The notes beneath the pieces were generated by a model, which worked only from the letters and a program-made list of their open reading frames with translations, was not told the origin of the DNA and ran no database searches. From the IMG/VR virus record IMGVR_UViG_3300032236_001244, positions 3,583 to 67,582 of that record: a stretch of 64,000 bases of DNA, one strand, 5' to 3'. Shown here piece by piece: positions 4,985-63,999 of this stretch. Each line of letters opens with the position of its first letter. Within the stretch, counting starts at the first letter, position 1. The stretch comes from a virus. Both the position numbers and the translations under genes were made by a program.

Positions 4985-5024
4985 ACAAAAAGATTACTAG
5001 CCATTTTGACTAAACGGGAGTTTG

Positions 5025-45293: not shown

Positions 45294-45311
45294 GAACAGT
45301 GTTCGCAAGTT
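45294..45311. promoter_or_regulatory. Operator-like palindrome, copy 2
   Basis: Identical 18-mer GAACAGTGTTCGCAAGTT. Confidence 0.5.
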
Positions 45312-47629: not shown

Positions 47630-48715
47630 TTAACCCTTAAAATCGGGCGGTAAAGCAACCTCACACACACAATTTGGGTGGAGCGGTGGAAGGGGGTCGC
47701 CAATCTGAAAGGTGGCTTCTTGAGCCAAGCATTCCTTACAGGCTCCCTCGTACGAAATCCAAACAAGTTCGGTGATACCAGCCTGTTGGAATTGGTCAAG
47801 CATGGATTGGTTGTAAGCGGTCTGGGCTTCGGTACCAATAATCATGTCCGCTCGGTCGCCACCAAAAGTTCCGGCGTTGATTGCGTCAATGATTTCTTGT
47901 GCTGATAAACCCCCGTCTAGTCCAGAGGAAATCTGGTCGGTGACGCTTCCAAGCGTGGTGTCCGTAATCCCGTTCGCTACATCAGGGCTGTTGGCAAGCA
48001 AATCGCTCATGCCACCCGTGCCATTTACAATGGCGTCTTGTGCTGATTGGGAGTTGCCCACATTCCAATTTGAGAGGGCAAGACCAGCGACGAAGGCTGC
48101 TAAACCGCCGACAAGCCAAGCCTTGGAGCCAAGGTCGCTCTGGGCTTGGTCGGTTCCATAAACCCCAGCGTCGCCGTAAATGTTGTCAAGGGCGTCTATC
48201 AGGTCGGTGTTGTCCGTGGTCAAATTGTCGCTAACCGCTTGCTGGGCAATCATTTGGTGGCTTTGCGAGTTCGTGTAGGCGTTCGGGTGGTGAACCGCAC
48301 TATTTACCGCCTCGTTTAGACCCTTGATTGAGCCAGCCAAAGCGGTAGCCATAAGTGGTGAGTAGTGGCTCACGATTTTCTTGTTCATTTTGCGACCGGA
48401 CATTTCCGACTTTTTGCGCTTGCTGATTTCAAGGCTTTTGGAAACGCCTTCAACCGAAGCAACAATTCCTCTTGCCCACGAGTAACCGGCGTCCCCACCC
48501 CACGCTTCCCATGCGACACGACCGTGAGACGGGTAGCCCTTTTCGCCGTGGTGAAAGCCCTCGGCTTTTTGGTCGGGCTGGTGTCTGTCAAAATACGCCT
48601 TCATGCGCTTGACGGTTTTGTAAGAAACGGCGTGACCTGCTGCTAAATCTGAGGCTCGCTTGCGTCCGGTGTCGGTGAAGCCACCGCCTTGCTTGCCTTC
48701 CTTGAGCCATTCCAA
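47630..48715 (-). CDS. MuF (SPP1 gp7-like) head morphogenesis protein with extra N-terminal domain; true start likely upstream via frameshift
   Basis: RA..I..TE...A, C..C, PPLHPNCVC; N-terminal KRM.AYF.RH...AW..WGGD domain. Confidence 0.88.
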   Translation of the reverse strand: MEWLKEGKQGGGFTDTGRKRASDLAAGHAVSYKTVKRMKAYFDRHQPDQKAEGFHHGEKGYPSHGRVAWEAWGGDAGYSWARGIVASVEGVSKSLEISKRKKSEMSGRKMNKKIVSHYSPLMATALAGSIKGLNEAVNSAVHHPNAYTNSQSHQMIAQQAVSDNLTTDNTDLIDALDNIYGDAGVYGTDQAQSDLGSKAWLVGGLAAFVAGLALSNWNVGNSQSAQDAIVNGTGGMSDLLANSPDVANGITDTTLGSVTDQISSGLDGGLSAQEIIDAINAGTFGGDRADMIIGTEAQTAYNQSMLDQFQQAGITELVWISYEGACKECLAQEATFQIGDPLPPLHPNCVCEVALPPDFKG

Positions 48716-48768
48716 CGCTCTCTTGCCAGCACTTTGTACCGACTGAGGTGGGGTGAAAGTATCAGTTG

Positions 48769-49068
48769 CTACTTTTTTTTTAAGACAGAGCGCATGACGG
48801 ACTTAATAATTTCCGCTTCTTTCTTGGTGACCATGGTGGTCTTGGGGTTCAAGAAAGCGTCCACTTCGTCCTTAAGTTCCTTGGGCGCTGGCTCCCACGA
48901 CGGCAAAGTGGTTGCGTGGCGTACTTCTTCTTTTTGCTCAGCGACAGGCTTGTTTTCTACGCCCAATGCCCACAAGAGGTCGGGAAGGGTGGTGACCAAA
49001 GTGCCGACACGGTACAAATCCCATGTACGGGTCTTAAGCCAATCTTCGTTGAGCGTTTCTTTGTCCAT
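48769..49068 (-). CDS. Hypothetical protein, probable N-terminal part of the MuF fusion
   Basis: Leaderless TAAACT-N6-ATG; ends in A AAA AAG TAG. Confidence 0.7.
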   Translation of the reverse strand: MDKETLNEDWLKTRTWDLYRVGTLVTTLPDLLWALGVENKPVAEQKEEVRHATTLPSWEPAPKELKDEVDAFLNPKTTMVTKKEAEIIKSVMRSVLKKK

Positions 49069-49077
49069 AACCATAGT

Positions 49078-49290: not shown

Positions 49291-49302
49291 GGGTTTAGTG
49301 TA

Positions 49303-52300
49303 TCACTTTCCGACCGGACGCTCTCCCCAATTAAGGGCTTTGGCAATGTTGGTCATCATTGGCGTTTCCGTGAATTGGGGCATACTCCACATTGCGTAGT
49401 TTTCCGCTACCAACTCTTGAAGTTTTCTGGAGCCATACTCCGTGGCGCCTATTGCTTGGAGCGCCTCGGATTGCTTGTCGGTAAGGGAGCAGTTTCCTCG
49501 CCCAAAACTATTGATGTATTGCCCGTACTCGGTAGCGGTCATTGTTTTGTTATCAACCTCAATGTATTGATAGCCACGACCAAAAGCCTTGGCAAAGCGT
49601 GTGTCTGCTGAAGATACCGCCTTTTCCCAATCAATTGAACGACCCTCGTAGCCGACATCTTCCGCTGTTTGTTTTAGGGCGTCAAAGATTTCCGAGATTT
49701 TGTGACCCTCGGAATAAAAATTGCTGTGACCGATTTCGTGAAGCGTAGTTGCTTCGGCTGCTTTTTGTATGTTCTCAAAGAACGAACTCGTACTCCATAC
49801 GCTCTTTATAATCTTCTCGCCCATGTAGTCAAGACCACGGCTTTGCTCGTATGGGGGAGAAATTATTTCGTCGTCTTTTGCTGTTCCGAGCGAGCGAGTA
49901 ATCCATGTTGCGTATTTTCCAAAAATAATGGTGTTTGGCTCATCAGTAACAATTTTGCCAAAAGTGTTTTTGTTTATGTCTCCCGTGAAATCAACGGTTT
50001 TTCCGGTCGCTGCTCCGTCTAGGGTCTTTAATACCGTCTGAGGAATTTCCATGTCGGGGCGCCAACAGTCCCAATTTTGGTTTGCTGATGAGATTTGGTA
50101 CTTAGGCAATGCTGGGTCAGTTTTTCTTGAAAAGATTGCCTTGTTACCCTTGTCTGAAACCAAGGTGATTTTTTTATCGTTTGGATTATCCGTGTCCACA
50201 ACTCGTTGCCAGCCAGCAAGGAGTGGTGTTCCGTCAATCCAAGTATCTTCGGTTTGTAACTTTTCGCCACCAATACCCTTGACCCATTGATTGCCGTGGA
50301 ATTCGTGACCCTTTTTGTCACCCTTGTTCACGACCTTCGTGGGCGGACTTGCCCACTTGACTTGCCACGATTGCGTTCCGCCGAGAACGACGACTTCCTT
50401 TTCAGCCAAACAACCAAAGCCGGTGGTCGGCAAGGAGAAAATTTTGCTGGCTGGAACGGTGCCTTGGATAATCACACCAGGATTTCCGGCGAAATTTGCT
50501 GCCTCGGAATAGGAACTCGCAAATGACGAAAGGGGGCGTAGCGGAACGGTCACACTTGTTCCTTCTGCGTTGGGGTTGCCAACAGCGCTTTTAGCCCAAT
50601 CGGGTGCCTTGACACGGGTGTAGGGGGTGGCTTGCTCGCTCTCTGGAAGGAAACTGAAACCACGGTAGACCTGAACTGAGGTGATGTTGTTGTCCTTCAG
50701 GAACTGCTGTGTCGTGTCGTACTGAGCCTGTACAAAGGCTTTGAGGAACTCGTCATTGTTCTGTCGGTAGTAGTCAATGTCCTCTTGTGTGCTTGGGGAG
50801 ATTTTCCAATCTGCGGTATCCTTCAAGCCAAGCATTTCATTGGCAACCTGCTGAATGGCTAGAGACTTGTACGAATTGTCATTGGAACTTTGCGCCCATT
50901 GACCAATTAGTTCGGAAATCTTGTTTTCCCGAAGTGCTTGGTCGTTGTTTTCCTTTTCTCCAATACGAGCCTCAGCGAAACCTTGCGTGTCCCCACGGGT
51001 GAAGTTTTCATCTGCGTAGTCGTTATTTGCTCCCGAAAGATACTCTTGGATTAGTGGGTCAGTGGTGTTCCCAAGGTATGTCCACATTTCCTTTTGCTCG
51101 CCGTTAGCGTCAATGTACTGACCGGACGACCACAAGTCGTCGTGGGTGAAGCATTGAGCCAATGGCTTCGTTGGTGTTCCGTAAACATTTTGGATTGGTT
51201 CGTCCATGCGACGGATACCAAGCCCACGGTCAAACTTGTCTCCCAAACGCTCGGCAATGTTTTTACAGACATAAGCCTTTAGGTCGCCAGATTTTGGTGC
51301 GCCCAATTGACCGACGACAAAATCATCTTGTTGCCGAGTGCGAGTAGGGAGCGAGGCGAGGGTTTGGGCGACGGCTTCCTCTAGGGCAGCCGCTTGGTCG
51401 GGGTTTTCCCCACCGCCAATTCCACCCGTGTACTGGTTGCCATGGAAGGAATGCCCAGATAGGTCACCTTTAGTAACGGCATTCTCACCGCTGACATTAA
51501 GAATGTTCCATTTTTCCGTACCGCCCAGAACGGTAATTTCTTGTTCGTCGTAGCACCCCACGCCTGTGCGAGAACAGGAAAGTATACGAGACACAGGAAC
51601 CACACCGCTAATTACATAGCCTTTATACTCGTCGGGTTTTTCGTTATAGGCAAAATTAACCGCCATGTCACGGTCATAGGAAAACGAAGAAAGGGGGCGC
51701 AAAGGTACATCTGCTGTTTTATCAGAGCCAACCCAATCTGGCACGGCACTGCTACGCCACTCAAACCCACGGTAAACAGGAACTTCAGTGATACCAGCCT
51801 TTTGAAAAAACTCTTGAGTACTTTCGTATTGCGCTCTAACAAAGTTTCGGTACAAATCGCCGTTGGTGGAATACTCGGTTTCCACATCTGATTTAAGTGC
51901 GTCAGAAATTTTCCATTCCGCCGTACCTTTCAAGCCAAATTCGTCAATCGTTGCTTGTTGAATGGCTAACGCCACGAAGTGACTGTCATTAGAGGTGGTC
52001 GCCCATGTTGCCACCAAGTATGAGGTGGCTTGCTCTCGTAAATGTTCCATTACCCTAGGGTCGTCACCATTCATTTCAACAGAAGCCTCTGGGGGTCGGA
52101 ATTGAAGAATTCCCTCTGAGTTTATTCCCCACTTATCTGTGGTTTTGGTGTGTAACAACTCGTCAATCGGTATTTTGGCAATTGAAGCAGCGTCATTTGG
52201 GTACACCATTAACAATTGTCGTCGTCCAAAATCAATCACCGCTTTGTCAAGAATGTTTTTGTCCATGCGCCGAGCAAGGTCTTTGGAAACAGCCTCTTTA

Positions 52301-55300
52301 AGTTCGGGCGCAATCACTTCTTTCATTATCCTCGGCGCACCCTGCTCTATAGCGTCCTGAACCGATTTGGTCATTGCTTTGATTTGTTCTGGTGAATAGC
52401 CATGGTCGTACTCGCTGTCTCCACCCAATTTGACCCATTGGTTACCGTGAAATTCGTGACCGCTCTTGTCTCCCTTTTTGACTTGGGTTTTAGAAAGAAG
52501 TTCAATACCCTTTGGTGTTTTCCAGAAGGGGTTGATTTCGTCAAACCAATGACTTGAAGTTGATTTGACCACAGTGGGTTCTGGGCTAGGAAGTTGTGCG
52601 ATTTCTTTGACGGTATCGGCGTTCCAATACGAGGCGATTTGCGTATCGCCATTTTTCATTGACTCTTCGTCTTCTTCGTCAAATGGTTTGTCTACTTCCC
52701 TACCAATAAGTTCGTGATAGCCAACAGCGTCCCAAAGTGCGTAAGACGAAACGGGTGTACCGTTTGCTAATTGCGCTACTCGTTCTTCAAGGGCAGTTGC
52801 TGCCCCTGCGACAATTTGAGCAGAACCCAAGTTTCCTATGTGTACCCCGTGGTCGACCTTTATCCCGTTAATACAAGCAGCAAGATTGCCGTTGGCGTCA
52901 CGAGCCACAAGAAAGAACGGCTTTACCACCGCACCCGAAGAAGGGCGGAAGTCATCTTGAGCCTGTACGCAACTCATTTTCATCTCGCTTAAACCGAGTT
53001 TTAGGCGCTCGTCGGCGGTGTCGTAAATTTTGTCTTCTAGCGTTGCCACTTCATTTAAGACCGCCTTGACCGCCTCGGTGCTTTCAACGCTTTCTATTTT
53101 TCCGCCAGCACCATAGAACTTGCTTATTTGTCCTCGGATAAAAGAAATGTGGGGTGGTTCGTTTTTGGAACTTCCACCAATCCCACCCGTGTATTGATTA
53201 CCGTGAAACTCATGCCCACCCTTGTCGCCCTTTTGAATTGTTTGTGGTGATTGTTGAAGCGCCTTGGCAACAAACAAGTTTGCTTTGAAGTTTTGCGGAA
53301 ACCAATTTGGCAAATAGTTTGGTTCGGTCTTTTTCCAATCCCTACTCTTTGCGTAGAACTGCTGTTGGGTCAAGTAAACATGGGTGGCTCCGTTGTCACG
53401 GACTTCAACTCTGTCCACCATGAAGCGTCCGCCGGTCAAGACTTGTGGTGAAGCAGTAAATCCAGCAAGGTCTGCGCCCACGGTGCCTTCGGGGGCATGA
53501 AGCATGAGTGCTGATTGAGGATTGCGAGGGTCGTTGGTTTGCCAAACATTTTCCGCAAAGTTTTGAGCCATTTCTTCGTGATACGAATTTGTCCACGACG
53601 AAATTGGAAGGTCTACCGTTGAGCCGGTGATGAACTTGCTGGCAATGGTGTGGTCGGGGTCGTAAATGCCACGAACCATGTCAGCATGGTATGGCTTGGC
53701 AATGTCGCTAATAAGACCCATAAACTCGTCAGCGTTGGCAATGGCAAGGTCGCACTGTTCTTGGAGCGGTTCGGCTTCGGGGTCGGTAAGGCTCCGACCA
53801 GAAGTCGGGAAGTTTGCTGGCGTGACATGACCGCCTGTGTTGCGAGCAAAAAGTTCTACTTGGAATAGTTCGTGTTCGTTGTACCAATAAGGTCTGTTGC
53901 GGTCTAAAAATTCGCTGAAGTCACGGTGACGATAAGTTGATGACCATTGACTAAGAATGCGTTGTTTTTTCTCAAACGAGAATTTATCGTTGGGGCGTTC
54001 CAAGGTTGCTGTTCCGCCACGCCCACCTGTGTATTGGTTTCCGTGGAACTCATGTCCGGAGACATCACCCTTTTCTACAGGTGATTGTGCTACGAGCCAG
54101 CCCTTTTCGGCACCAAGGTATCCGCCACCTTCGCCCAAATAGTCAGCAATGCGAATTCCCTTTGTGCCAGCCGGTAGCGATTGAACTTCACCGCCGTACT
54201 TCTTGGCAAAGTTAGAGGCGATTGATTTGCTCTCCGACCATTCGTCAAAAGGTCTGGTGAAGTTATCGTCAGACTTACTTCCACGGTACAGTTTTGGCGT
54301 ATCCGTTGCGTTGTGCTGAAGTTCGTACAGAACCGAGGCGTACAGAGCCTTCGCCTTGGCTATCTGTGGTGAAGTAGCAGGCTCATCTCGCAAGCCGTAG
54401 CCAATCCCGACGGGGCTACCCTTTAATTTCGCTAGTGCCTCACGAACCAAGTCATTGTGGTCTTGGTGCCAAGTGTATGTACCGTCAGGGTTTTGCGTGG
54501 CGTTTGGTGCGCTTCCTCGCTCTGGTCGGTATGTATAATCACCAGGCATTGAGACAGTCCATTGGTTCCCGTGGAATTCATGCCCCTTGATGTCACCCTT
54601 GGATACACCCTCAGGTGATTGAAGGTAGATGTGCGTGTATCCGTTCATCTCTTTCTGGCTGGCAACTACGAAGTCACCGCTCACAATTTGCTCGTGGAAA
54701 CGAGTAACGCCACCGTATTGGTTAGCGTCCAAAGCCTTGGTTCCCTCTGGAAGGTGAAGGATTACTCTGAGATTGTCCCTGGGGGTGCTGTAGATGTCGT
54801 AGCCTTCTCGCTTGGAAGCGAAGTCTCTGGCGACACTTGGCTTGTCGCTGAACGAAGCAAGCGTCATGTGTAGCGTCTTGCCAACTCCGTAGCGTTCTTG
54901 AAGTTCGTCGGCTGGAACGCTGACCCCCGAAAAAAGTTCGGACTTAGAGGGCGGTGCGTTCAGCACAGCGTCCTGAAGTTGTTGGCTCCAATCGTTGTCT
55001 AACTTGCGCCAATTTTCGGTGTGGTCGGTTATAGACCACGCCCGTACCAACTTGTCAAGTGGGTGCTTCTGTGCTGAACCGCTTTCGCCGGTTTCGTACT
55101 GATTGCCGTGAAATGGGTGACCAGCGACATCTCCCTTGGCAACGGTCTGATTGCCATTTATCTTGTCGTAGTTCCAAACTACAATCTCGCCACCCATGCG
55201 CCAGCCGTCAAACCCTGCTGATTTCATAGCGTCGGCAAGGCGTTCGTCAATGCCACGGTAGTAGTCAATTCCATACTGACCCCTTGGCAATGGGAAGTAT

Positions 55301-56538
55301 TTTGAGCCGTCTGCTCTCGTGGTCGCCGGTATTCCCTCGGAATTTGCTGCTTGCTCTAGAAGGTTGTTGAAGTCTTTGTCTGTTCCAAGACCTTCCAAAA
55401 TGTCAAAAGAGCCTGTCGTCAAGTCGTTGATTGCGAAAAGTTTGAACGGTTGCCCTTCGGGGGCGTTCAACTGAAGAACACCGTCGCCCCTAGGAGCGTC
55501 CTCTGGGTATTTGACGGCAAAGACACCGCCATGCCCCCACCGGCTTTCACCTTCACGGAAAACGGGCTTGTCGCCGTTGTAACCGTGATAGAGCGTAGGA
55601 ACTTCCATTGTGTGGCTCTCAATGACAGATTTTGGAATGGTGATTGTTCCCTTGCCACCCGTGTACTGATTACCGTGGAATTCGTGTCCTTGAACATCTC
55701 CCTTGGCTACTTTTTGCTCGTCATACAAAGCACTAAGAAGTTGGTAGTGAATTTGCTGTGCTTTTTCTTCGTCGCCTTCGCTTTGAGCCTTTTTTTCTTC
55801 ATCAAGAAGTTTTTGCCATTTTGGTTGTTCGTTATCAACGCCTTTTGCCTTTTCAATCACGGCATAATGCGACAAGATTTGGAATGCCTTGATGAGTTTG
55901 TCAAGGTTGTCAATCATGTTCTGGTGCTGGGTGGTGAACTCAACCTCAGCGAAATCGCCCCACAGATTGACCAACTTGGGGCGGATAATTAAAAGTGCTT
56001 CAAGCGTCAAGCCATTGTTCCAAAGGCGTGAGATGAGTTCTGGTGAAGCCTCACGGGGGCGGAAATTACAGAGGGCGTGGTCAATGCCCACAATACGCCC
56101 GTCGTCGGTGTAGATGAGGTTTTTGGGGCGTCGGTCTGCGTTGGCTACGAGGTAGTCAAAGAGGCGCAAATTGTCGCCTTGGTGATTGTCGGGATAGTAA
56201 TCCTCAATGCCGAGTTCCTCGCCCGTCTTTCCCTCAATGAAAGGCATAATGACCATTAGGGCGTCCTCGTCCACAAAGTGGCAGTCTCGTATAGGGGCGT
56301 TGATTGCGCCCCCTACAAGGGCAGATAGGTACTCCTGCGTGGCAAGGAGTTCTGCTGGGTAGAGGCGACCCGTCTTGTTGCCGTACCAATCCTTCAATTG
56401 CTTGGTGATACCGCCGGAGCCGTCTGCGAAAAGGACAAATTGGAACCCGTCATTCTGATTTCCCTTGAAACTACCGCCCATGGGGTAGGTTTTGGCTACC
56501 TCAAGCGAGGTGAATGTGACGAAGTTTGGCTGGAACAC
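49303..56538 (-). CDS. 2411-aa tagged effector polyprotein: kinase, 4 ART-like, GNAT, 2 ART, zincin
   Basis: 8 KGD tags cut it into 278/189/179/176/280/252/335/382/340-aa modules; motifs DRRPKN..IDH, YRG..SSF..ExE, HEIGH..E.VAE. Confidence 0.88.
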   Translation of the reverse strand: MFQPNFVTFTSLEVAKTYPMGGSFKGNQNDGFQFVLFADGSGGITKQLKDWYGNKTGRLYPAELLATQEYLSALVGGAINAPIRDCHFVDEDALMVIMPFIEGKTGEELGIEDYYPDNHQGDNLRLFDYLVANADRRPKNLIYTDDGRIVGIDHALCNFRPREASPELISRLWNNGLTLEALLIIRPKLVNLWGDFAEVEFTTQHQNMIDNLDKLIKAFQILSHYAVIEKAKGVDNEQPKWQKLLDEEKKAQSEGDEEKAQQIHYQLLSALYDEQKVAKGDVQGHEFHGNQYTGGKGTITIPKSVIESHTMEVPTLYHGYNGDKPVFREGESRWGHGGVFAVKYPEDAPRGDGVLQLNAPEGQPFKLFAINDLTTGSFDILEGLGTDKDFNNLLEQAANSEGIPATTRADGSKYFPLPRGQYGIDYYRGIDERLADAMKSAGFDGWRMGGEIVVWNYDKINGNQTVAKGDVAGHPFHGNQYETGESGSAQKHPLDKLVRAWSITDHTENWRKLDNDWSQQLQDAVLNAPPSKSELFSGVSVPADELQERYGVGKTLHMTLASFSDKPSVARDFASKREGYDIYSTPRDNLRVILHLPEGTKALDANQYGGVTRFHEQIVSGDFVVASQKEMNGYTHIYLQSPEGVSKGDIKGHEFHGNQWTVSMPGDYTYRPERGSAPNATQNPDGTYTWHQDHNDLVREALAKLKGSPVGIGYGLRDEPATSPQIAKAKALYASVLYELQHNATDTPKLYRGSKSDDNFTRPFDEWSESKSIASNFAKKYGGEVQSLPAGTKGIRIADYLGEGGGYLGAEKGWLVAQSPVEKGDVSGHEFHGNQYTGGRGGTATLERPNDKFSFEKKQRILSQWSSTYRHRDFSEFLDRNRPYWYNEHELFQVELFARNTGGHVTPANFPTSGRSLTDPEAEPLQEQCDLAIANADEFMGLISDIAKPYHADMVRGIYDPDHTIASKFITGSTVDLPISSWTNSYHEEMAQNFAENVWQTNDPRNPQSALMLHAPEGTVGADLAGFTASPQVLTGGRFMVDRVEVRDNGATHVYLTQQQFYAKSRDWKKTEPNYLPNWFPQNFKANLFVAKALQQSPQTIQKGDKGGHEFHGNQYTGGIGGSSKNEPPHISFIRGQISKFYGAGGKIESVESTEAVKAVLNEVATLEDKIYDTADERLKLGLSEMKMSCVQAQDDFRPSSGAVVKPFFLVARDANGNLAACINGIKVDHGVHIGNLGSAQIVAGAATALEERVAQLANGTPVSSYALWDAVGYHELIGREVDKPFDEEDEESMKNGDTQIASYWNADTVKEIAQLPSPEPTVVKSTSSHWFDEINPFWKTPKGIELLSKTQVKKGDKSGHEFHGNQWVKLGGDSEYDHGYSPEQIKAMTKSVQDAIEQGAPRIMKEVIAPELKEAVSKDLARRMDKNILDKAVIDFGRRQLLMVYPNDAASIAKIPIDELLHTKTTDKWGINSEGILQFRPPEASVEMNGDDPRVMEHLREQATSYLVATWATTSNDSHFVALAIQQATIDEFGLKGTAEWKISDALKSDVETEYSTNGDLYRNFVRAQYESTQEFFQKAGITEVPVYRGFEWRSSAVPDWVGSDKTADVPLRPLSSFSYDRDMAVNFAYNEKPDEYKGYVISGVVPVSRILSCSRTGVGCYDEQEITVLGGTEKWNILNVSGENAVTKGDLSGHSFHGNQYTGGIGGGENPDQAAALEEAVAQTLASLPTRTRQQDDFVVGQLGAPKSGDLKAYVCKNIAERLGDKFDRGLGIRRMDEPIQNVYGTPTKPLAQCFTHDDLWSSGQYIDANGEQKEMWTYLGNTTDPLIQEYLSGANNDYADENFTRGDTQGFAEARIGEKENNDQALRENKISELIGQWAQSSNDNSYKSLAIQQVANEMLGLKDTADWKISPSTQEDIDYYRQNNDEFLKAFVQAQYDTTQQFLKDNNITSVQVYRGFSFLPESEQATPYTRVKAPDWAKSAVGNPNAEGTSVTVPLRPLSSFASSYSEAANFAGNPGVIIQGTVPASKIFSLPTTGFGCLAEKEVVVLGGTQSWQVKWASPPTKVVNKGDKKGHEFHGNQWVKGIGGEKLQTEDTWIDGTPLLAGWQRVVDTDNPNDKKITLVSDKGNKAIFSRKTDPALPKYQISSANQNWDCWRPDMEIPQTVLKTLDGAATGKTVDFTGDINKNTFGKIVTDEPNTIIFGKYATWITRSLGTAKDDEIISPPYEQSRGLDYMGEKIIKSVWSTSSFFENIQKAAEATTLHEIGHSNFYSEGHKISEIFDALKQTAEDVGYEGRSIDWEKAVSSADTRFAKAFGRGYQYIEVDNKTMTATEYGQYINSFGRGNCSLTDKQSEALQAIGATEYGSRKLQELVAENYAMWSMPQFTETPMMTNIAKALNWGERPVGK

Positions 56539-56540
56539 GC

Positions 56541-59500
56541 TTAAATCATACCCTTATTGCTCATGTAGGTGATTGCTCCGGTTTGGAACCTAGCCAGCAT
56601 TTCCCCAAAACTTTCGGTGCGGTTCATTGAGGTGAAGGTTGGCTTTAGCGCCATAAGGCTGGCGTGGATACCTTCCAATTCCTCTCGGGTTGGTGAACCA
56701 AGAAGGTTGAAGTCGGGAACGGGAATGGAATTGTAGAAATCGCTCCCCTTTTCAGGGAAGGCAAACGAATGGTCAATTCCCACCAAAGAGCCATTGGTGG
56801 TTACCATAATGTTTCCGTGGTTGAAAAGTTCGCCGTCCATAAAACGGTCGCCATTTCCAACGAGTTGGTCAAAGAATTGAATTTTGTTAAGGTCGGCTTG
56901 CGCCTCTGGGGTGTCGGGGATTTTCGTTTCGTAGCCCGACTTGCCGTCAATCCATGGTGAAACAATCTTTCTTGATAGCCACGGCTGGTCGGCTGGGGCG
57001 TCGTTGGGTGGGTTTGCGTCAATCGCACCCATGGCTGGAACAAACTGTGCGTCACGGATTGGAATGTCAAGGGCTTTTCCGACTGCTGAAGCAAGAACTT
57101 CGTTTTGGGCTTGGGTCGTGTTGGCTGGGTCACCGTCATTAACATCTGCGCCAGCGATTGTTTTTACGCCAGCCAAAGTGCCGTCTTTCATCTCAACTTT
57201 TTGCCAACCCTCGTTGAACGCACCGCCAAGTTTCAATTTGTTGCCAATCACCTTGGCAACAAGGTTGTCTTTCAGAGCGACAAACTTTCCTTCTTTTGCG
57301 CCGTCCTTGACGGAAGAAGCGAGCCGAGAAATACGATTTGCTTTTGGTGATTGAGACTTGGGCGCTCGTGGCTTGCGATTACCGTTGGGGTTAAAGTTTC
57401 CTTCGGCGTCAATCCATTGGTTTCCGTGAAAAACATGACCCTTTACATCACCCTTTTGAACGAGAGCCTTGGTGAGGGTTTGGTCAATTTTGGCGTTGGT
57501 GATTAATGGGTTTTTGCCCGTTGCTCCGTTCGCTCCGAAGTCCTTTGGGTCAAGCAATGGGGTGCTGTCGTACACGCCCGTCGTGGTGGTTCCTGCGGTA
57601 TCCCAATACGAGGGGTCAATCTTGGTGTAGGTGTTCGCTACCGAAACTTGTGAGCGGTCAAGAACCATGGTGTACTGACCGTATGGCGTGTCACGGGTCA
57701 GGGCAGAAACCCCACACAGCATTGCGGTGGTGTTCATGGTGCTGAGGTACCATGAAGTTTCACGGTTGCCCTTTACATCAAAATTTTTGAAGCCAGCGTC
57801 AGCAAGAAGTTGCTTTACCCCGTCTTGGTTGTAGTCAAAAGTTCGCTCGGCTCGGTCGTAATTCATAATGATTGCGTCTGGCAAAAGTTTCATACGCAAC
57901 ATGGCGTTATCTTCGCCGTTGGCGTATTGACCGGAAACCGAAGGTTCCTGCGAGGTGTAGTAGGCAATTCCGTAATCTCCACCACCAAAATGCGGAACGG
58001 GATTGTACGCAAAATTGGCGACCATGTTCTCTGCGGTGACACCCTCGGCTGGGCGATTAGCACCTGGGTTATTGATTTCTGTGCCAGATGTCAGACCCTG
58101 ATACAAAACGGGGCTGTCAATCTTGCTGAATGCGGAGTTGCTCACAACCTTCGGTACGCCGTTCGCACCACCAAGCATTGCGATAGCCGTGATGTCGGCA
58201 CCACCAAACGAATTGTCACCACCAGCGACCAACTCGGCTCGCAACTTCTCATAGCGTTCGGGGCTGGCGAGGATTTTGGAAAGGTTATTGGTGTAGGTTT
58301 CTACAAATTGGCTGGGAACAAATCCCTCAGCAAAATCACGCACACGCTGACGAAGTTCCGGCGACACGGTTGGCTCACCGCTTTCGCCTTCCTTGTATTG
58401 GTTTCCATGGAATGCGTGTCCAACCTTGTCACCCTTATTGATGAGCGAGTGCTGATAGTCGTATTGCGCCCGACCACCGCCAAAGCACGGGCGAATGTCG
58501 TCCATGGACTTGGAAACGCCGTCCGTGAATGAGAGGGTTGAGGGGTCTGCCCACTGAGGTGATAGGAGCGCACCCTTTTGTTCGGGGAAGCCACCACCGA
58601 GTTGGGTCATGACAGAGTTCTGACCACGGGTAGCGGTAGTCATGGCGAGGCTGGCGAGTGGTGAATACATGGTGGAGTGGGAAGCCCACGCTGCTTCTTC
58701 GCCGTGGCGGTCAAAGTCACGACCTGTCGCTGCGTGACCGAATGCGTCGTGGACGGCTCGGAACTCTTCAATTTCCCGATTGGAAACGAAGGGGTGTCCG
58801 CCCGTGCTATCCGCAGAGAGGACTGAGAGGTGGTGATTGTCAAGAATGTCCTGAGCCATTTCTTGCTCGTTCTTGTACGGGTCGTCCTTTACGACATCAA
58901 CCTTGATACCGAGGGTCTTGGTCAGGTACTCAAACTGCTGATGAGTTTCCTTGGCGAACTGACGGTACGCAGGTCGTGCGCTCTCGTCCAACGACGGCAA
59001 GCCGACATACTCGTTGGCGATTGCCTTGGCTCGTTCGGGGTTCACCTGAACACGGGAATAGTCAATGTCTGGTCGGTTGATACCGTGGAGTTTGGCGTAG
59101 TCCGAGGCTCCCTTGGCGAGGTAGGTGTTTCCGCCCTTGCCACCCGTCCACTGATTTCCATGAAATTCATGTCCGGTTTTGTCGCCCTTGGCGACGACCT
59201 GCTCCTTGGGGATTACTGTCAAATGCTCCGCTGAAGGAACCACGGCGGAAATGTCATTGACAAGATTTCCGTTAGCGTCCACGGTAACGCCTTCGCCCTC
59301 ATTGGAGTAGTAATAGCCATTTTTGGCGTTGCCAGCACTTAGGTTTCGTGTCATTGTGCTGTTGGCACGGTCATCACTAATCGGTGCGAGTGGCGTGTTT
59401 TTCATTGAACCCGTTATAGCCACGGGGAAAAGGTTTGGCTTGCTATCCATTGGGATAGGTGAACCGTCAGAATAAATTGCTCCACGAGAGTTGTACGCCC

Positions 59501-60383
59501 AATTAGGATTTTCGCTCTTGATTTGCTGTACCTGTTCCCATGTGTATTTGTTTCCGTCAGTAATCCATTTTCCGCTTTCGTCTTTGACGGGGTGTAGGTA
59601 ATACGCTGGTTCTGGCAAGCGAGGCTTTCCGTCACCGCCAACAATCATGGTTTTGCCGTACTCTTGGTCGCCGTTCCAATCCTTACCGTCTGCTCGTTTG
59701 CCAATTCGTGCTTCAAGTGCTTCTTTCGCTGCTAGGTACCCACCGACATGAACACCGTAGTTAGCGACCTTCAATCCTGCTTTACCGTTTGGTGAACCGT
59801 GCCAATAAACCTTGTGACTAACTCCGTCAATAATGGTGTATTGATTTCCGTGAAAAGCGTGACCTTCTACATCACCCTTTGACACGCCCGTGGTCGGGTC
59901 GTAGCCGAACTCGTTGATACTGTCGGCGTTGGTGAATACGGTCTTGGCTGGCACCGTCATAGAGATGACCTTGCCACCGCCCACCACATTGCCCTCGGCG
60001 TGGTTTTCGGCGTAGGTCTTAGATAGCGTGACCCAATCTCCGGTGTTGATTGTGTCTACATCTTTGGGAACGCCACGATAAATGGTCACCATTGCGTCGG
60101 GATTTCCCTTGACAGCATTGATAACCTTTAGGCTCTCCCCGTCCGCCTTGTCGTCTCCACCGGAGCCGTAGTAGCGCAATGCCTTGTCGCTGTAAATGTC
60201 TGGTGGGTAGATTTGGTCTAGGGCGTGAAGTGGAGCGCAAAACCCGTCGTTGCTCGGTGCTGAATGGTCACGGCGGTACGAGACATCTTCCGTAGCGTCC
60301 ACGGTCTTGTATTGGTTTCCGTGAAACTCGTGTCCTTCTTTGTCGCCCTTGGTGACCAGACGCAAGATGTTACGGAAATCCAT
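56541..60383 (-). CDS. 1280-aa tagged effector polyprotein: ART-like x2, HDxxGH peptidase-like, ART-like, kinase
   Basis: 5 KGD tags; modules of 157/230/251/327/304 aa after an 11-aa leader. Confidence 0.88.
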   Translation of the reverse strand: MDFRNILRLVTKGDKEGHEFHGNQYKTVDATEDVSYRRDHSAPSNDGFCAPLHALDQIYPPDIYSDKALRYYGSGGDDKADGESLKVINAVKGNPDAMVTIYRGVPKDVDTINTGDWVTLSKTYAENHAEGNVVGGGKVISMTVPAKTVFTNADSINEFGYDPTTGVSKGDVEGHAFHGNQYTIIDGVSHKVYWHGSPNGKAGLKVANYGVHVGGYLAAKEALEARIGKRADGKDWNGDQEYGKTMIVGGDGKPRLPEPAYYLHPVKDESGKWITDGNKYTWEQVQQIKSENPNWAYNSRGAIYSDGSPIPMDSKPNLFPVAITGSMKNTPLAPISDDRANSTMTRNLSAGNAKNGYYYSNEGEGVTVDANGNLVNDISAVVPSAEHLTVIPKEQVVAKGDKTGHEFHGNQWTGGKGGNTYLAKGASDYAKLHGINRPDIDYSRVQVNPERAKAIANEYVGLPSLDESARPAYRQFAKETHQQFEYLTKTLGIKVDVVKDDPYKNEQEMAQDILDNHHLSVLSADSTGGHPFVSNREIEEFRAVHDAFGHAATGRDFDRHGEEAAWASHSTMYSPLASLAMTTATRGQNSVMTQLGGGFPEQKGALLSPQWADPSTLSFTDGVSKSMDDIRPCFGGGRAQYDYQHSLINKGDKVGHAFHGNQYKEGESGEPTVSPELRQRVRDFAEGFVPSQFVETYTNNLSKILASPERYEKLRAELVAGGDNSFGGADITAIAMLGGANGVPKVVSNSAFSKIDSPVLYQGLTSGTEINNPGANRPAEGVTAENMVANFAYNPVPHFGGGDYGIAYYTSQEPSVSGQYANGEDNAMLRMKLLPDAIIMNYDRAERTFDYNQDGVKQLLADAGFKNFDVKGNRETSWYLSTMNTTAMLCGVSALTRDTPYGQYTMVLDRSQVSVANTYTKIDPSYWDTAGTTTTGVYDSTPLLDPKDFGANGATGKNPLITNAKIDQTLTKALVQKGDVKGHVFHGNQWIDAEGNFNPNGNRKPRAPKSQSPKANRISRLASSVKDGAKEGKFVALKDNLVAKVIGNKLKLGGAFNEGWQKVEMKDGTLAGVKTIAGADVNDGDPANTTQAQNEVLASAVGKALDIPIRDAQFVPAMGAIDANPPNDAPADQPWLSRKIVSPWIDGKSGYETKIPDTPEAQADLNKIQFFDQLVGNGDRFMDGELFNHGNIMVTTNGSLVGIDHSFAFPEKGSDFYNSIPVPDFNLLGSPTREELEGIHASLMALKPTFTSMNRTESFGEMLARFQTGAITYMSNKGMI

Positions 60384-60388
60384 GGTGC

Positions 60389-60805
60389 TTATTCCGGCTT
60401 CGGAAAAGTCAGGAAGTAGCCGTTAGACCAATTGTCGCTGAGGGTGCTGAACACGCCTTCGTCCGTCAAACCGGCACGGCGGTAGCGAGTGACAAATGGC
60501 TCCGCACAACCTTCGGCGTTGGTGATTACTCCCTTGGTCAGGGTCACGGAGCCAAGGGGATTGTTAGCGTTCTGAGCGTCCTGTGAGACGAAGATAATGG
60601 TACGGCTGTCGTCAGACTTGGTGATAGTGGGGTCGGACGACAACTTGTCCAGCATGGGGTCGCCACTGCTCAACTTGTCAAGAAAAACCTCGGAAGGCTT
60701 CCATGCGGAGCCGTTCCAAAACTGAGGTGATTTGCCGTCGTAACGGAAGTACGCTAGAGGCTTGTCGCCCTCAAGCGAAGTAAGTTGATAAAAAGTCCAC
60801 GCCAT
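60389..60805 (-). CDS. Two-domain small protein in the effector cluster (untagged)
   Basis: Leaderless TAGGAT-N6-ATG; C-terminal half paralogous to the C-terminus of the RelA-like protein. Confidence 0.75.
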   Translation of the reverse strand: MAWTFYQLTSLEGDKPLAYFRYDGKSPQFWNGSAWKPSEVFLDKLSSGDPMLDKLSSDPTITKSDDSRTIIFVSQDAQNANNPLGSVTLTKGVITNAEGCAEPFVTRYRRAGLTDEGVFSTLSDNWSNGYFLTFPKPE

Positions 60806-60822
60806 TGCTTTATCCTACTCTC

Positions 60823-62664
60823 CTATTTTTGGGGGAATGCGCTACTAAATAGTCTGACGACACCCCGAACATCTCCCTTTTGTACGGGCTTGCCATGCCA
60901 AAGCGGTCTTTGTTCGCTTAGGTCGGAAGTAGGAAATGGGCGCTCCGCAATTGTTCCTTGCTGTTGGGCGTTTCCAAAGTAGCGAACCTCTACGGGTACC
61001 TCTTTCATGCCGAGTTCAACTGCTGCGTCTCGGCGGTGATTTCCCTCAGCAATAACCGGAGTTCCGTCGTAGTCCACGGTGATAAAGATTGGCTCCTTAA
61101 TACCGTTTTTGGCAATGTCCGCTTTAAACTTTTCCCAATCGTCGCCCTTGTACATTCGGTGGTCAAATGGCTTCTCGCCCGAGGCGCCAAGCATGAACTT
61201 GATTGCGTCGGTGGGAATGGTTCCACTTTCGTTGCGAGTGATGTGGTCGTAGCGACCCGTTTTGCCTTCGTAGTCTTTGCCCGTTAGGTGAAAGCCAGCC
61301 CGACCTTCGGTGTACTGATTTCCATGAAACTCATGACCTTCTACATCACCCTTGTAGACCTTGCTTGCGTCGTGGTTCCACGCCCCAAAAGCCGGTTCAA
61401 TTTCGCTAAGTGGCGGTCGGACGCTTTCGGGTATTTCGGAATACCGGACACGATAAGCAGCACCTGCTTGCTTTGAACCGCAGGTATCACCAACTAGTCG
61501 CCAAGAGCCAGCCCGTGCCTCTGGCGTGTTGGGGTCAAAGAATTTGTCCGAGCGAAGCACATTGCCGTTTTTCAAATCACGGAAAAGCCATGCTGTTTTT
61601 GGGTCTATGATTTTTCCGCAGTGAGCGCAAGTTGCTTCAGCCTTTTGCTGTTTGGCTTTGTCAAGATTGCGGTTGTAGAGAACATCATTGAATGTTCCAA
61701 ATTCGCCACCAAATGCGCCACCAACAATTGGATACCGGCTCAGGTCGCCACCAATCCATTGGTTGCCGTGGAACTTATGTCCTTTGACATCACCCTTAAG
61801 AACAGGGGTCTGAGGGGGTAGCGGTGGGATTAGATTGTCTGGGGCAATGACACGAACAGAGACGAGTGCTTGATTGTAATTACGAGCGTTGATGTGGTCA
61901 ATGCTTGTTACTTCCATTTTCAGGTCACGACCAAGCAAGAGTTCCGCTTCGTCCTTAACGCTAACAAATCCACCACCACTGTATGGGCTAGTCGGTCTAA
62001 ATAGTGCTGGCACCCCTTCGGGAATTGTCATGAGCATTTCGGAACTTCTACTGCGCCCGAAAGAAGGCTTTGCGTCTCGCAGTAAATCCCAAGTTCTGTT
62101 GTCGTCTAGGTTGGTTAAACTTTCTTGGAAAAAAAGTTTGGGGTTTAGCGTTGTTGATTGGTAGGCAGGGTCGGTGATAATTTGACCAACCTTTAGGTCA
62201 TTGACATTTATTTGCTTACCGTTTTCGTCCATAAAGGTGTTTCCGGTAAACCGAGCAGCGTAATAGGTTCCGTCAGTTGGTGTTGAGGCGAGTTGCTTAT
62301 CAATTGAGTTAATTTCTTCCGCAACCCCTTCACGCCTATACTCTCCTGAAAAAATGTTGCCTATTGTGCCTGTTTGGTCAAAGTCTGACGCACTTCCATT
62401 GCGAAGCCACCTGTTCAAGGTGTCGTTTCCTATGGCAATGTATTTACTTACATCACTGTTGTAAGGAATTTCCTTCCACCTCGTTGTTTCCATTGCCCTT
62501 TTTTGCGAATTAAGCATTAAATTCATACGATTTCTGGCAATTTTTTCAATGCGTTCTTCTGCTGTTGTTGAACCCGAAATTCCTTCTGTCCACTGATTGC
62601 CATGAAAGGCGTGACCTTGAACATCTCCCTTGGTGATGTTACGAAGAATGGAAGCGAAGTCCAT
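60823..62664 (-). CDS. 613-aa tagged polyprotein: VIP2-like ART, Zn-binding module, ParB/Srx domain
   Basis: 3 tags plus a truncated 4th; N.WLR..R..QSTT..EAELLL; CAHC; GIKEPI...EGNHRR.A. Confidence 0.88.
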   Translation of the reverse strand: MDFASILRNITKGDVQGHAFHGNQWTEGISGSTTAEERIEKIARNRMNLMLNSQKRAMETTRWKEIPYNSDVSKYIAIGNDTLNRWLRNGSASDFDQTGTIGNIFSGEYRREGVAEEINSIDKQLASTPTDGTYYAARFTGNTFMDENGKQINVNDLKVGQIITDPAYQSTTLNPKLFFQESLTNLDDNRTWDLLRDAKPSFGRSRSSEMLMTIPEGVPALFRPTSPYSGGGFVSVKDEAELLLGRDLKMEVTSIDHINARNYNQALVSVRVIAPDNLIPPLPPQTPVLKGDVKGHKFHGNQWIGGDLSRYPIVGGAFGGEFGTFNDVLYNRNLDKAKQQKAEATCAHCGKIIDPKTAWLFRDLKNGNVLRSDKFFDPNTPEARAGSWRLVGDTCGSKQAGAAYRVRYSEIPESVRPPLSEIEPAFGAWNHDASKVYKGDVEGHEFHGNQYTEGRAGFHLTGKDYEGKTGRYDHITRNESGTIPTDAIKFMLGASGEKPFDHRMYKGDDWEKFKADIAKNGIKEPIFITVDYDGTPVIAEGNHRRDAAVELGMKEVPVEVRYFGNAQQQGTIAERPFPTSDLSEQRPLWHGKPVQKGDVRGVVRLFSSAFPQK

Positions 62665-62667
62665 GAC

Positions 62668-63999
62668 CTAGACCGTCCAAGTTTTTGGAGCGTCTACGCA
62701 AAAGTTCTGACCGTCCGACCAACCGTTGAGGCTTTCGTAAATCTCTTGGTCGGTGGTGTCTTGGTTGAGAACCGCCTTGTTCAGACGACGCTCATTGGAA
62801 ACCCAAAACTCTCCGTCGCCCGTGAAGGTGGTGAACTTGCCGTTTTCTAGGGTAGCGGTACCCGTCGCACCGGCTTCGGGGTGTGCGAAGTCGTAGAAGT
62901 AAAGGACTTGTGCTGATTTCTTAACCGAAAGTTTGCCAATGCCCTCAACGCCAGCCGGAATTGGAACCGATTGCCACATGGAAATCATCTTGGCTTGACC
63001 GTCTGCGTACGCTTGCGACGAAGGGTCTAGCAAACGAACCTGCTCGTAAATGGGGTGAACTTCCCCAACCATGGCTTGGCTTTCGGGCGTGTGGAACTGA
63101 ACCTCAAACTTTTGGTTGGTGGTGGTGTCACGGAACACGCAGTTAATCCCACGGTAGGAGTTTTGGGGGTCGTCGTTAAAGAAGTTCTTTACCTTTAGGG
63201 CTTCAAAGCCTTCGGTCTTAAAGTCAGCGAGCGACTTTGCTACTCCTTCACCAAACTTTTCCGTGGGGAATTGAAGGGTGTAGCGAACGGTGTCGCCAAG
63301 ATTTTCTGCTGCTACTTGGAGCGCACCGGACTTGGTGTCAAGGTATTCCGAGGTGTCCTTTTCCAATTTGCGAGCGATAGAGGCTTCGTCTTTCAGCACA
63401 AATTCTGGCTTAATGCGAGTTGCTCCGTACTGCTTACAGGTTTCATCAATTTCTCGTGAGATTTCCGGCTCAGCCTTTTTTGCTCGTTGGTACAAAAGCG
63501 AAGCAAGTTGGCGAGCGTTGCGAGGTGGTGAACTTGGCTTGCCACCCTCTCCCTTACCGCCCGTGTATTGATTGCCGTGGAATTCATGTCCTTCTTTGTC
63601 GCCCTTGGCAACCGGCTTGCGGTACTTACCGCCACGACGCTTGTATTCCTGAACGACCCAACCGTTGGCGACCGCTGAAGGGTAGACATCAAACTTTGCC
63701 TTAGCGTCAGCCTTGACCTTTTCGTAGAGGTCGGTGTCTACCGGCTCACCCTTTTGGTCGCTGATAATGCGCTCGTACTTGTTCTTGGTGACTTCGCTCG
63801 GAGCCTTGCCAGCAGGTGCGCCCGTAGCGTCCATGTGGCGCAGTTGGCAAAAACCTTCGGGATTGTCAAGGTGTTTCCCAGCGATTGCTACGCAAGCGTC
63901 AAAGTCGCCCTCGGAACCCCAATTGATTTGACCGTCGGCACCGTCGTTGTACCACTGAATGAGAGCCTCGGCATTGCCAGCCTTGTGGATTTCAACCTC
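62668..63999 (-). CDS. Multidomain protein with tagged RelA/SpoT-like (small alarmone synthetase-type) domain; 5' end outside the window
   Basis: Frame is open to the window edge (EVEIHKAGNAEALIQW...); K..SIARK, DTVRY, YRGIN, EVQFHT; upstream WG..GDF..C and YPSA.AN..VV.EYK..GG.Y domains. Confidence 0.85.
   Translation of the reverse strand, partial: EVEIHKAGNAEALIQWYNDGADGQINWGSEGDFDACVAIAGKHLDNPEGFCQLRHMDATGAPAGKAPSEVTKNKYERIISDQKGEPVDTDLYEKVKADAKAKFDVYPSAVANGWVVQEYKRRGGKYRKPVAKGDKEGHEFHGNQYTGGKGEGGKPSSPPRNARQLASLLYQRAKKAEPEISREIDETCKQYGATRIKPEFVLKDEASIARKLEKDTSEYLDTKSGALQVAAENLGDTVRYTLQFPTEKFGEGVAKSLADFKTEGFEALKVKNFFNDDPQNSYRGINCVFRDTTTNQKFEVQFHTPESQAMVGEVHPIYEQVRLLDPSSQAYADGQAKMISMWQSVPIPAGVEGIGKLSVKKSAQVLYFYDFAHPEAGATGTATLENGKFTTFTGDGEFWVSNERRLNKAVLNQDTTDQEIYESLNGWSDGQNFCVDAPKTWTV

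Follow-up and report, generated by a model that had tools for sequence, protein, structure and literature searches.

A near-invariant peptide tag ahead of unrelated modules in phage polyproteins: a candidate two-part signal for packaging and release of cargo

In a 64,000-nucleotide stretch of viral DNA (hereafter the window; bases 3583-67582 of one 67,582-bp virus contig, IMG/VR record IMGVR_UViG_3300032236_001244) we found 20 copies of a short peptide tag with the 13-residue core G-D-x-x-G-H-x-F-[HR]-G-N-Q-[WYH], which heads unrelated protein modules in long polyproteins as well as in small single proteins. We put the chances about even that the tag belongs to a two-part signal before each cargo module, made up of a phage-specific protease site and a universal cargo header. 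The basis for this is the anatomy of the tagged proteins, the wide distribution of the tag, its position outside folded domains, its head-internal contexts and a link between the residue that precedes it and the protease of the phage.

Copy number and conservation of the tag

An earlier note on this DNA had described the longer motif [VIL]-x-K-G-D-x-x-G-H-x-F-[HR]-G-N-Q-[YW] with 17 copies in four proteins. A regular-expression search of the translated open reading frames (ORFs) returned the same number, namely eight copies in ORF B, five in C, three in E and one in F, and the modules between tags measured 148-382 amino acids (aa), the range that had been given. Three extra copies in the window, unlisted before, lie in the small ORFs 45310-45855, 44642-45235 and 6381-6902 (all minus strand), and two further copies are found in the 3.6 kb of contig left of the window, which brings the totals to 20 tags in the window and 22 in the 67.6-kb contig. 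The cores, spanning G-D to G-N-Q and located by a DNA-pattern scan, are the following:

63568..63603, minus strand, tag core of F
62593..62628, minus strand, tag core of E, copy 1 (N-terminal)
61759..61794, minus strand, tag core of E, copy 2
61315..61350, minus strand, tag core of E, copy 3
60312..60347, minus strand, tag core of C, copy 1 (N-terminal)
59841..59876, minus strand, tag core of C, copy 2
59151..59186, minus strand, tag core of C, copy 3
58398..58433, minus strand, tag core of C, copy 4
57417..57452, minus strand, tag core of C, copy 5
55666..55701, minus strand, tag core of B, copy 1
55099..55134, minus strand, tag core of B, copy 2
54562..54597, minus strand, tag core of B, copy 3
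54034..54069, minus strand, tag core of B, copy 4
53194..53229, minus strand, tag core of B, copy 5
52438..52473, minus strand, tag core of B, copy 6
51433..51468, minus strand, tag core of B, copy 7
50287..50322, minus strand, tag core of B, copy 8
45775..45810, minus strand, tag core of the 181-aa protein
45128..45163, minus strand, tag core of the 197-aa protein
6819..6854, minus strand, tag core of the 173-aa protein

The degenerate DNA pattern of the core matches the window 20 times, compared to a mean of 0.00 in 100 dinucleotide-preserving shuffles, none of which held any match (0/100). Nine residues are invariant in all 20 window copies (20/20), and the same residues are essentially invariant in 185 tags from 25 contigs; codons vary freely at synonymous sites between the copies. 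As synonymous sites are free while the tag residues are fixed, selection acts on the peptide, and the codon evidence led us to reject a DNA-level repeat as the nature of the tag.

Distribution in databases and literature

A profile built from the 20 window copies was searched against 1.84 billion protein cluster representatives and matched 1,648 of them at E ≤0.001; 407 remain with the threshold set at ≤1e-10, and 53 with ≤1e-30. Of these 1,648 matches, the best 150 mostly hold 2-9 tag copies. Scanning IMG/VR with the DNA pattern gave at least 214 stretches with the core, and a second route through the same database gave 463 pattern stretches, 386 of them confirmed. The same pattern yielded 35 stretches in 185,579 prokaryote species (one genome each), of which 23 are credible. 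Among the IMG/VR matches listed, the position after the pattern, on which the search set no condition, holds W, Y, H or F in every distinct copy (221/221). Judged from these scans, the tag is concentrated in phage DNA and nearly confined to it. Carriers are phages of Verrucomicrobiota, Burkholderiales, Xanthomonas and Bifidobacteriaceae, among others.

In Pfam scans of all tagged proteins and modules, no family, LPD families included, was placed over the tag. A profile search of the PDB returned no solved structure containing it (one chance match at E 1.2), no protein or PHROG name among the 120 profile-homologue matches listed refers to it, and the motif strings are absent from the relevant paper texts searched, all of which agrees with the earlier view that the tag is undescribed. 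Searching 50,697 phage records by tblastn with a 34-aa tag window gave nothing at E ≤10, a single tag being too short for such a search; megablast of the region and tblastn with the Akkermansia portal tail gave no match, tblastn with ORF C and the F module returned module homologues only, with no tags among them, and an Atlas search with a small tagged protein gave scores that were all under 0.9. The universal header appears to be undescribed in print and to be a new feature within the known class of polyvalent, head-packaged effectors.

The tag stands between modules and outside folded domains

The recurring unit consists of a leader or preceding module, the tag, a Gly/Thr/Ser-rich spacer (G, T and S are enriched in the 20 residues after the tag) and a module. 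The median distance between tags in the best 150 matches is 208 aa (5th-95th percentile 110-569, n = 375). In 58 of the 149 best matches the first tag is no more than 30 residues from the start, after Met and a leader of 6-40 residues, and a tag within 60 residues of the C-terminus is seen in only 2/149. Five ORFs of the window start with such a leader, of 9 aa (C and E) or about 15-25 aa (the three small ORFs), directly followed by the tag. The tagged ORFs of the window are:

62668..63999, minus strand, ORF F, 443 aa in the window, cut by the contig end with ~15 N-terminal residues off the contig
60823..62664, minus strand, ORF E, 613 aa, a 9-aa leader, tag and ADP-ribosyltransferase (ART), then tag and 148-aa module, then tag and ParB_N-like module
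56541..60383, minus strand, ORF C, 1,280 aa, a 9-aa leader and five tagged modules
49303..56538, minus strand, ORF B, 2,411 aa, an untagged N-terminal kinase-like module and eight tagged modules
45310..45855, minus strand, small tagged protein, 181 aa, leader ending in LLYPLTK, then tag
44642..45235, minus strand, small tagged protein, 197 aa, leader ending in LLYPLSK, then tag
6381..6902, minus strand, small tagged protein, 173 aa, LLYPITK, then the R variant of the tag

With at least 1,648 representative proteins in which it heads unrelated modules, the tag is indeed portable, as had been proposed. Pfam, applied to 28 top matches, assigned polyvalent-type families to 19 and no family to 9; the families include ADP-ribosyltransferases, ART-PolyVal, InPase, NUDIX, topoisomerase IB, Tpt1, 2H phosphoesterase, GNAT, ParB_N, pentapeptide repeats and MuF. 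None of the 40 Pfam domain stretches in these 19 proteins overlaps a tag, and full-length domains, e.g. ART or CTP-transferase, begin 18-36 residues after it. The modules are shuffled between proteins and phages. Within the window, ORF C includes a ParB-C-like module (phrog_2579), a phrog_3170 module and a PI3/PI4- or HipA-like kinase, and two of the tagged modules of ORF B have DRAT/ART-like ends. The module identities put forward in the earlier note were recovered in part: ART (PF03496, 38 bits; weaker DRAT-like matches), the PI3/PI4- or HipA-like kinase and, weakly, ParB_N were found in sequence searches and RelA/SpoT by its fold, whereas Pfam gave neither GNAT nor zincin at E ≤0.1.

ORF F consists of an N-terminal domain that we call F0 (aa 1-129, including DUF5872), the tag, a RelA/SpoT-type small alarmone synthetase module (aa ~160-362) and about 80 C-terminal residues; a homologue of 469 aa (L305:9897-11303) is 68% identical. 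In an AlphaFold model of ORF F (20-row alignment, mean predicted local distance difference test score (pLDDT) 69), the tag and spacer fall into segments with pLDDT <50 (128-142 and 147-156), and a confident fold begins at residue 160. This fold matches small alarmone synthetases (8vx3, E 3.6e-13, template modelling score (TM) 0.82) and also Tas1 and CapRel. A second model, of a natural protein that joins a protease domain resembling Mu gpI to the tag (59 rows, mean pLDDT 82), contains a well-folded protease domain and, after the tag, a well-folded three-helix module. With no overlap in 40 Pfam stretches and a low-confidence coil at the tag in both models, the motif does not lie inside folded domains, an outcome that would have spoken against the earlier proposal; as far as the models go, it is a linear motif between domains.

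In seven proteins (P0047, P0050, P0058, P0078, P0102, P0174 and P0179) two tags lie 21-24 aa apart. The first tag of these close pairs is preceded by V (as T-V) in six proteins and by G in P0179, and T-K-S comes after it. Elsewhere, tags are separated by mini-modules of 44-76 aa, among them one in P0079 that resembles a zinc ribbon.

The tag occurs in head-internal contexts

On the minus strand of the window the order of genes is F, E, D, C, B, a MuF-like protein A, an Rpf-type transglycosylase and two of the small tagged proteins, followed by a LexA-like DNA-binding protein, a PD-(D/E)XK nuclease, a scaffold-like, a cement-like and the major head protein, and siphovirus tail genes. The untagged genes that matter here are:

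60389..60805, minus strand, ORF D, 138 aa, no tag and no assigned function, located between tagged ORFs
47630..48715, minus strand, MuF-like minor head protein A, 361 aa, no tag, PF04233 and PHROG minor-head families
41896..42681, minus strand, scaffold-like protein, 261 aa, phrog_13547, immediately ahead of the genes for the cement-like and major head proteins
41480..41893, minus strand, cement/decoration-like protein, PF09956, phrog_673
40480..41460, minus strand, major head protein, phrog_1005 at E 7e-100, weak Phage_cap_E match

Thus the MuF gene does lie downstream of the tagged ORFs, as claimed before; protein A matches PF04233 at E 5e-5, which is under the curated cut-off, plus several PHROG minor-head families. 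Its N-terminal 110 aa correspond to a module that is tagged in 22 of 24 homologous ORFs of relatives. Portal and terminase genes are not present on the contig; the relatives have a Mu-type portal.

Elsewhere the tag is found in a series of proteins of the phage head. Six ORFs in prophage-like regions of bacterial genomes join a Mu-type portal, the tag and a PBECR nuclease or LPD3, four ORFs of Burkholderiales prophages carry it in DarA_N, DarA_C or ddrB-ParB proteins, and many tagged proteins contain PF04233, with MuF fusions that include P0002 and P0018. Among 120 homologues of one Mu gpI-like protein, 13 are tagged and have the order protease, tag, helical module, scaffold; here the tag and a His/Ala-rich helical module of ~130 aa are inserted between the protease domain and the scaffold part, and the untagged orthologues simply lack the tag and the helical insert. 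In the cultured Xanthomonas phage Rb1 the tag is found once, at residue 736 of a 1,221-aa protein annotated as 'internal head protein' (L319, PQ569993.1 51801-55466), where the sequence reads L-D-G-D-F-S-G-H; the gene of this protein is part of an operon resembling the P1 dar operon. Both in Rb1 and in the Burkholderiales prophages a strongly acidic stretch precedes the tag and a basic, His-rich helical module follows it, the latter being the same as in the gpI-like proteins. All tag contexts found elsewhere lie inside the head, and the tie to head-internal proteins extends over portal, MuF, gpI-type protease/scaffold, DarA/DdrB-like and annotated internal head proteins. For P1, PMC9024508 and PMC12810830 describe such head-internal proteins as packaged, with a capsid-targeting N-terminus in DarB and an N-terminus in DarA that the head protease removes.

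The residue before the tag is linked to the protease and the scaffold

To look at the surroundings of the tag, related loci with flanks of up to 10 kb were collected in 38 dereplicated groups. An XkdF-type (PF14550) protease domain is present in 8 of these, at the end of a protein of 450-630 aa, and in all eight the tagged gene array is downstream of the XkdF gene and has the same orientation. Five of the eight have a tagged ORF as the very next one, and a sixth has a single 99-aa ORF in between; at one locus the XkdF protease gene directly follows a Mu-type portal. The XkdF fusion proteins (L317:1030-2718, with its protease domain at L317:2200-2718, and relatives) have a run of ~50 serines and a Cys-rich stretch between the N-terminal and the protease domains.

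The residue before the first glycine of the tag is nearly constant within a contig and differs between contigs. For a census of proteases we used 47 tag-bearing IMG/VR contigs of at least 30 kb, many of which are fragments. XkdF matched 22 of the 47 (20 over the cut-off), and in 22/22 of these the preceding residue is K. It is L (3/3 and 5/5) or N in three contigs with Mu-like_Pro and F (7/8), M (3/3), L or D in other contigs. Among 148 single proteins that carry at least three tags, 111 have one and the same residue before every tag. Mixed proteins pair L with A or with F, or have K and now and then S or V; K is never combined with L or F in one protein, and P0028 has A, K, K, R. The T4-type protease family PF03420 matched nothing anywhere, P1 included, and is hence uninformative.

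In 12 of the 13 tagged gpI-like proteins the preceding residue is N, and these proteins carry repeated, nearly invariant [ILV]-x-N-R motifs in their scaffold part. About seven such motifs are seen in gpI-like proteins of Verrucomicrobiota (P0316-P0435; L215:1222-2661(-)), and in the tagged members one of the motifs precedes the tag by 3-15 residues. The motifs are likely cut sites of the gpI-like protease itself. In the phage of the window, [VILF]-x-K occurs 7 times in the 261-aa scaffold-like protein versus 2.6 expected (8/2000 shuffles reach 7), 8-11 times versus 3-4 expected in six homologous scaffolds and 9-14 times versus 4-6.5 expected in the XkdF fusion proteins, and it is not enriched in the major head protein, MuF, tail fibre or helicase. 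The sequence of HK97 gp5 reads T-F-N-K103/S104, the same hydrophobic-x-K pattern, at the HK97 cut site, with S104 as the N-terminus of the mature capsid protein; HK97 is the type phage of this protease group.

The residue fixed per phage, the enrichment in the scaffold, the placement of XkdF and the HK97 pattern together point to cutting after hydrophobic-x-K, directly before the tag. The link to a prohead protease proposed in the earlier note is supported indirectly: the preceding residue is fixed per phage and tracks the protease family, the scaffold is enriched in [VILF]-x-K and XkdF lies upstream of the tagged arrays in relatives.

A proposed two-part signal and its alternatives

If the tag marks cargo in two parts, the first part would be a short site that differs per phage, hydrophobic-x-K in the window and with L/A, F, M, D or N as its last position in other phages, and would be the cut site of the phage's own prohead protease, probably of XkdF/HK97 type in this lineage. 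The second part would be the universal G-D-x-x-G-H-x-F-[HR]-G-N-Q-[WY] header with its Gly/Ser/Thr-rich spacer. Polyproteins and small tagged proteins would be built into the procapsid, where the protease would cut between the first part and the first glycine of the header. Each module (ART, kinase-like, ParB-like, alarmone synthetase and others) would in this way be freed with the same GD..GH.. N-terminus, and the freed modules would enter the host together with the DNA. Packaging, cleavage, the exact bond cut and the reader of the universal header are the parts that we infer. The earlier proposal of a capsid-targeting and/or protease signal thus stands in part, with indirect evidence from a tag that is portable, lies outside folded domains and is linked to head and protease.

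The invariance of the core across phyla suggests either conserved subsites of HK97-fold proteases or a conserved machine that acts later. We regard it as possible, and put it forward tentatively, that the core is a header retained at the new N-termini and not a protease site, read by one conserved machine, be it the ejection conduit of tailed phages or a conserved host factor.

Several observations weigh against a cut-and-release role followed by delivery. No prohead protease is recognisable on the contig of the window, which ends within ORF F, and the census left 25/47 contigs, many of them fragments, with no XkdF match; Mu-like_Pro was found in only 3 of the 27 contigs that are not over the XkdF cut-off, and S77, ClpP and S49 in none of the 14-15 contigs tested. 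The tape-measure protein, taken as a helical control, is itself mildly enriched in [VILF]-x-K (27 versus 19; 34/2000 shuffles). Common descent of the tags could be part of the reason why a phage has a uniform preceding residue, because other variable tag positions also exceed shuffles. Tag pairs 21-24 aa apart are not explained by a pure cleavage role, and three tagged ORFs of the contig lie outside the head block. In the monomer model of the gpI-like protein the tag is a coil with pLDDT <50 that is not docked to the protease domain, a result that is nevertheless neutral on binding. Finally, the phages Mu and P1 are without the tag (profile search; whole P1 record), and consequently no published proteomics applies directly to it.

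The closest competitor, to which we assign a minor share of the probability, regards the whole 16-residue element as one long protease recognition site, with the core filling conserved primed-side subsites or an exosite of HK97-fold prohead proteases and having no later role. It draws on the same residue, scaffold and XkdF-placement data as the two-part signal, and the kinship of the XkdF, Mu gpI and HK97 gp4 protease families could account for a common core. However, nine invariant positions across many host groups far exceed the needs of known prohead-protease sites: the T4 prohead protease site is L/I-x-E, and the P1 head protease cuts at E120/S121 according to PMC9024508. The candidate sites in the scaffold itself lack the core, the closely spaced tags, the first of which has no K, look uncuttable, and AlphaFold did not dock the tag in cis.

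Two further explanations seem to us unlikely, and equally so. According to the first, the tag would be an uncut targeting or anchoring peptide that binds scaffold, inner capsid, portal or DNA, with polyproteins remaining whole and binding through many tags. The N-terminal tag after a short leader in 58/149 proteins would fit this, tags 21-24 aa apart would raise avidity, and there is a resemblance to the N-terminal 30-residue capsid-targeting sequence of P1 DarB reported in PMC9024508. On the other hand, portal, MuF and protease domains, which are in the head anyway, also have the tag behind them, and there targeting is needless and release would be useful; a near-invariant peptide across phyla is hard to match with a phage-encoded surface because phage structural proteins diverge fast; and the phage-specific preceding residue is left unexplained. 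According to the second, the header would act after injection and be read by a machine conserved across bacteria, e.g. a chaperone refolding the modules one by one as they emerge from the tail, a membrane or translocation step, or a means of protection from host proteases. Extreme conservation across many host phyla fits a host partner better than a phage partner, and one tag on the N-terminal side of each module with a flexible spacer fits module-by-module handling, but this alone does not explain why protease/scaffold proteins, whose injection is not expected, are tagged.

A much smaller probability goes to the idea that the tag separates modules in the absence of a protease, either by cleaving itself or by being read in the nascent chain by the ribosome, similar to viral 2A or arrest peptides. 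About 16 residues with fixed G, D, H, N, Q and an aromatic residue recall such peptides, and chemical or ribosomal constraint would entail conservation across phyla. Yet where a tag stands at the N-terminus, behind a leader of 6-40 residues, there is nothing worth separating; the phage-specific preceding residue, linked as it is to protease family and scaffold, is not accounted for; and no such element is known from bacteria. Least probable of all is an inert joint inherited with recombining cassettes and devoid of a signalling function, since the clear shuffling of modules, which would suit it, is set against scrambled synonymous sites and nine invariant residues, i.e. strong selection on the peptide, and against a DNA identity between copies that is too low to guide homologous recombination.

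Neighbouring genes and further observations

The F0 domain (window 63613-63999; also L258:6372-8057 and L256:8281-9966) is a two-part domain of ~130 aa whose second part matches DUF5872. It starts ORF F and 25 other ORFs in 12/38 related groups, and 20 of these 26 ORFs are tagged; it is also the N-terminal domain of the protein that ends in the XkdF protease domain. F0 may be a procapsid anchor of both protease and cargo. At the other end of ORF F, the C-terminal ~80 residues (window 62671-62910, aa ~363-443) correspond to a separate ORF of 91-101 aa directly downstream in relatives (7 groups; e.g. L297:13948-14220 and L255:2800-3102). This tail could act as a cognate inhibitor of the synthetase or as its immunity partner, fused to it in the phage of the window.

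Both contig ends break within tagged ORFs reading inwards (G000:C1:3-1259(+) and window 62668-63999(-)); assembly failure at shuffled cargo modules may be the cause of these ends. Homologues of ORF D occur in 7/38 related groups. The 173-aa tagged protein is located among replication-type genes, away from the head block. The same region contains, among replication genes and beside the tagged ORF 6381-6902, an HslV-family peptidase-like gene (window 4496-4984(-), phrog_1040) and a permuted papain-like gene (window 5651-6181(-), Peptidase_C92 at E 9e-5, under the cut-off). As homologues of each are present in only 5/38 groups, these genes (4496-6181) were set aside as processing enzymes. The phrog_13547 protein was likewise considered as the absent protease and rejected, its short conserved N-terminus, acidic spacer and Ala-rich helical body being those of a scaffold.

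Just after the MuF gene lies a signal-anchored Rpf-type transglycosylase (window 47012-47458(-), PF06737). It belongs to a family of ~200 aa that follows the last polyprotein in 11/38 related groups, which we had considered as a partner of the cargo and rejected because it is this signal-anchored transglycosylase. Rpf-type domains are typical of Actinobacteria, and the gene hints at the host. The tail region contains a single ORF of 3,416 aa (window 14522-24772(-)) downstream of the tape measure.

Significance and comparison with known systems

Protein injection together with DNA has long been known for a few model phages, with no general rule for which proteins are cargo. With a near-invariant header on thousands of modules in many phyla, injected effectors could be read straight from sequence, among them ADP-ribosyltransferases, alarmone synthetases, kinases, nucleases and many modules of unknown fold. 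The header would also mark module boundaries in giant polyvalent proteins, and the preceding residue would point to the specificity of the protease. Should the header be sufficient for packaging, it would be a portable handle for loading proteins into capsids; should it be read by a conserved machine, it would amount to a general 'inject me / handle me' signal for phage-delivered proteins across many bacterial phyla. As one cultured phage, Xanthomonas phage Rb1, carries the tag, the question is directly testable.

The sites in phiKZ and SPN3US are 3-residue motifs ending in Glu. The ejection proteins of these phages, like the tagged proteins, are a case of many head-internal proteins with a short common motif, at which a T4-like prohead protease cuts them before injection; unlike here, no universal header is reported for them. 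In T4, the internal proteins and Alt carry a short N-terminal leader on unrelated cargo, the cut motif is common to the scaffold and the cargo is injected with the DNA (PMC9024508). The window shares the short leaders, and [VILF]-x-K is shared with the scaffold, the cut itself being a prediction. The T4 signal is, however, a leader of 10-19 residues ending in L/I-x-E that is specific to the phage group and removed by gp21, whereas here a universal 13-residue core stands on the cargo side of the presumed cut, is repeated within polyproteins and occurs across protease families.

The P1 Dar system resembles the tagged proteins in its class of cargo, head-packaged anti-restriction proteins (DarA, DarB, DdrA, DdrB, Hdf and Ulx). 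According to PMC9024508 and PMC12810830, a reporter is directed to the capsid by the first 30 residues of DarB, and the protease Pro removes the N-terminus of DarA. Tags are present in the internal head protein of Rb1 and, within Burkholderiales prophages, in DarA_N, DarA_C and ddrB-ParB proteins; P1 is itself untagged, and the window ORFs have no Dar domain (DarA_N, DarA_C, ddrB-ParB or DarB-type). MuF polymorphic toxins, as described by Jamet et al. 2017 (PMC5576092), carry effector domains on the MuF head protein for delivery, and many tagged proteins do contain PF04233, MuF-toxin fusions being present in relatives such as P0002 and P0018. In the window, by contrast, MuF is separate, untagged and matches no toxin family, and the cargo is on four other ORFs and three small ones, with many modules instead of MuF and one toxin.

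The best match is with polyvalent proteins, which Iyer et al. 2017 (PMC5512222) describe as very long chains that string together 2-15 conflict-related domains without kinship to each other; their genes lie with those of the virion, and packaging and injection have been proposed for them. The domains include ART, ParB, RelA/SpoT, PBECR, 2H and InPase as well as MuF or portal fusions. The main text of that paper does not contain the terms 'linker', 'conserved motif' or 'GNQ'. A difference concerns processing, for which a zincin-like metallopeptidase is proposed there (PMC5512222), while no zincin was detected in the window; indeed, no peptidase family was found in the 20 modules/proteins scanned (Pfam, E ≤0.1), zincin being common, not universal, in the class. 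The four large tagged ORFs of the window and most profile matches fit the class, with at least two unrelated effector domains per chain: B, C, E and F carry kinase-like, DRAT/ART, ParB-like and RelA/SpoT modules, and they are followed directly, with no change of strand, by the genes for the MuF, scaffold-like, cement-like and major head proteins. The system of the window is thus a rich member of the known class of polyvalent, head-packaged effectors.

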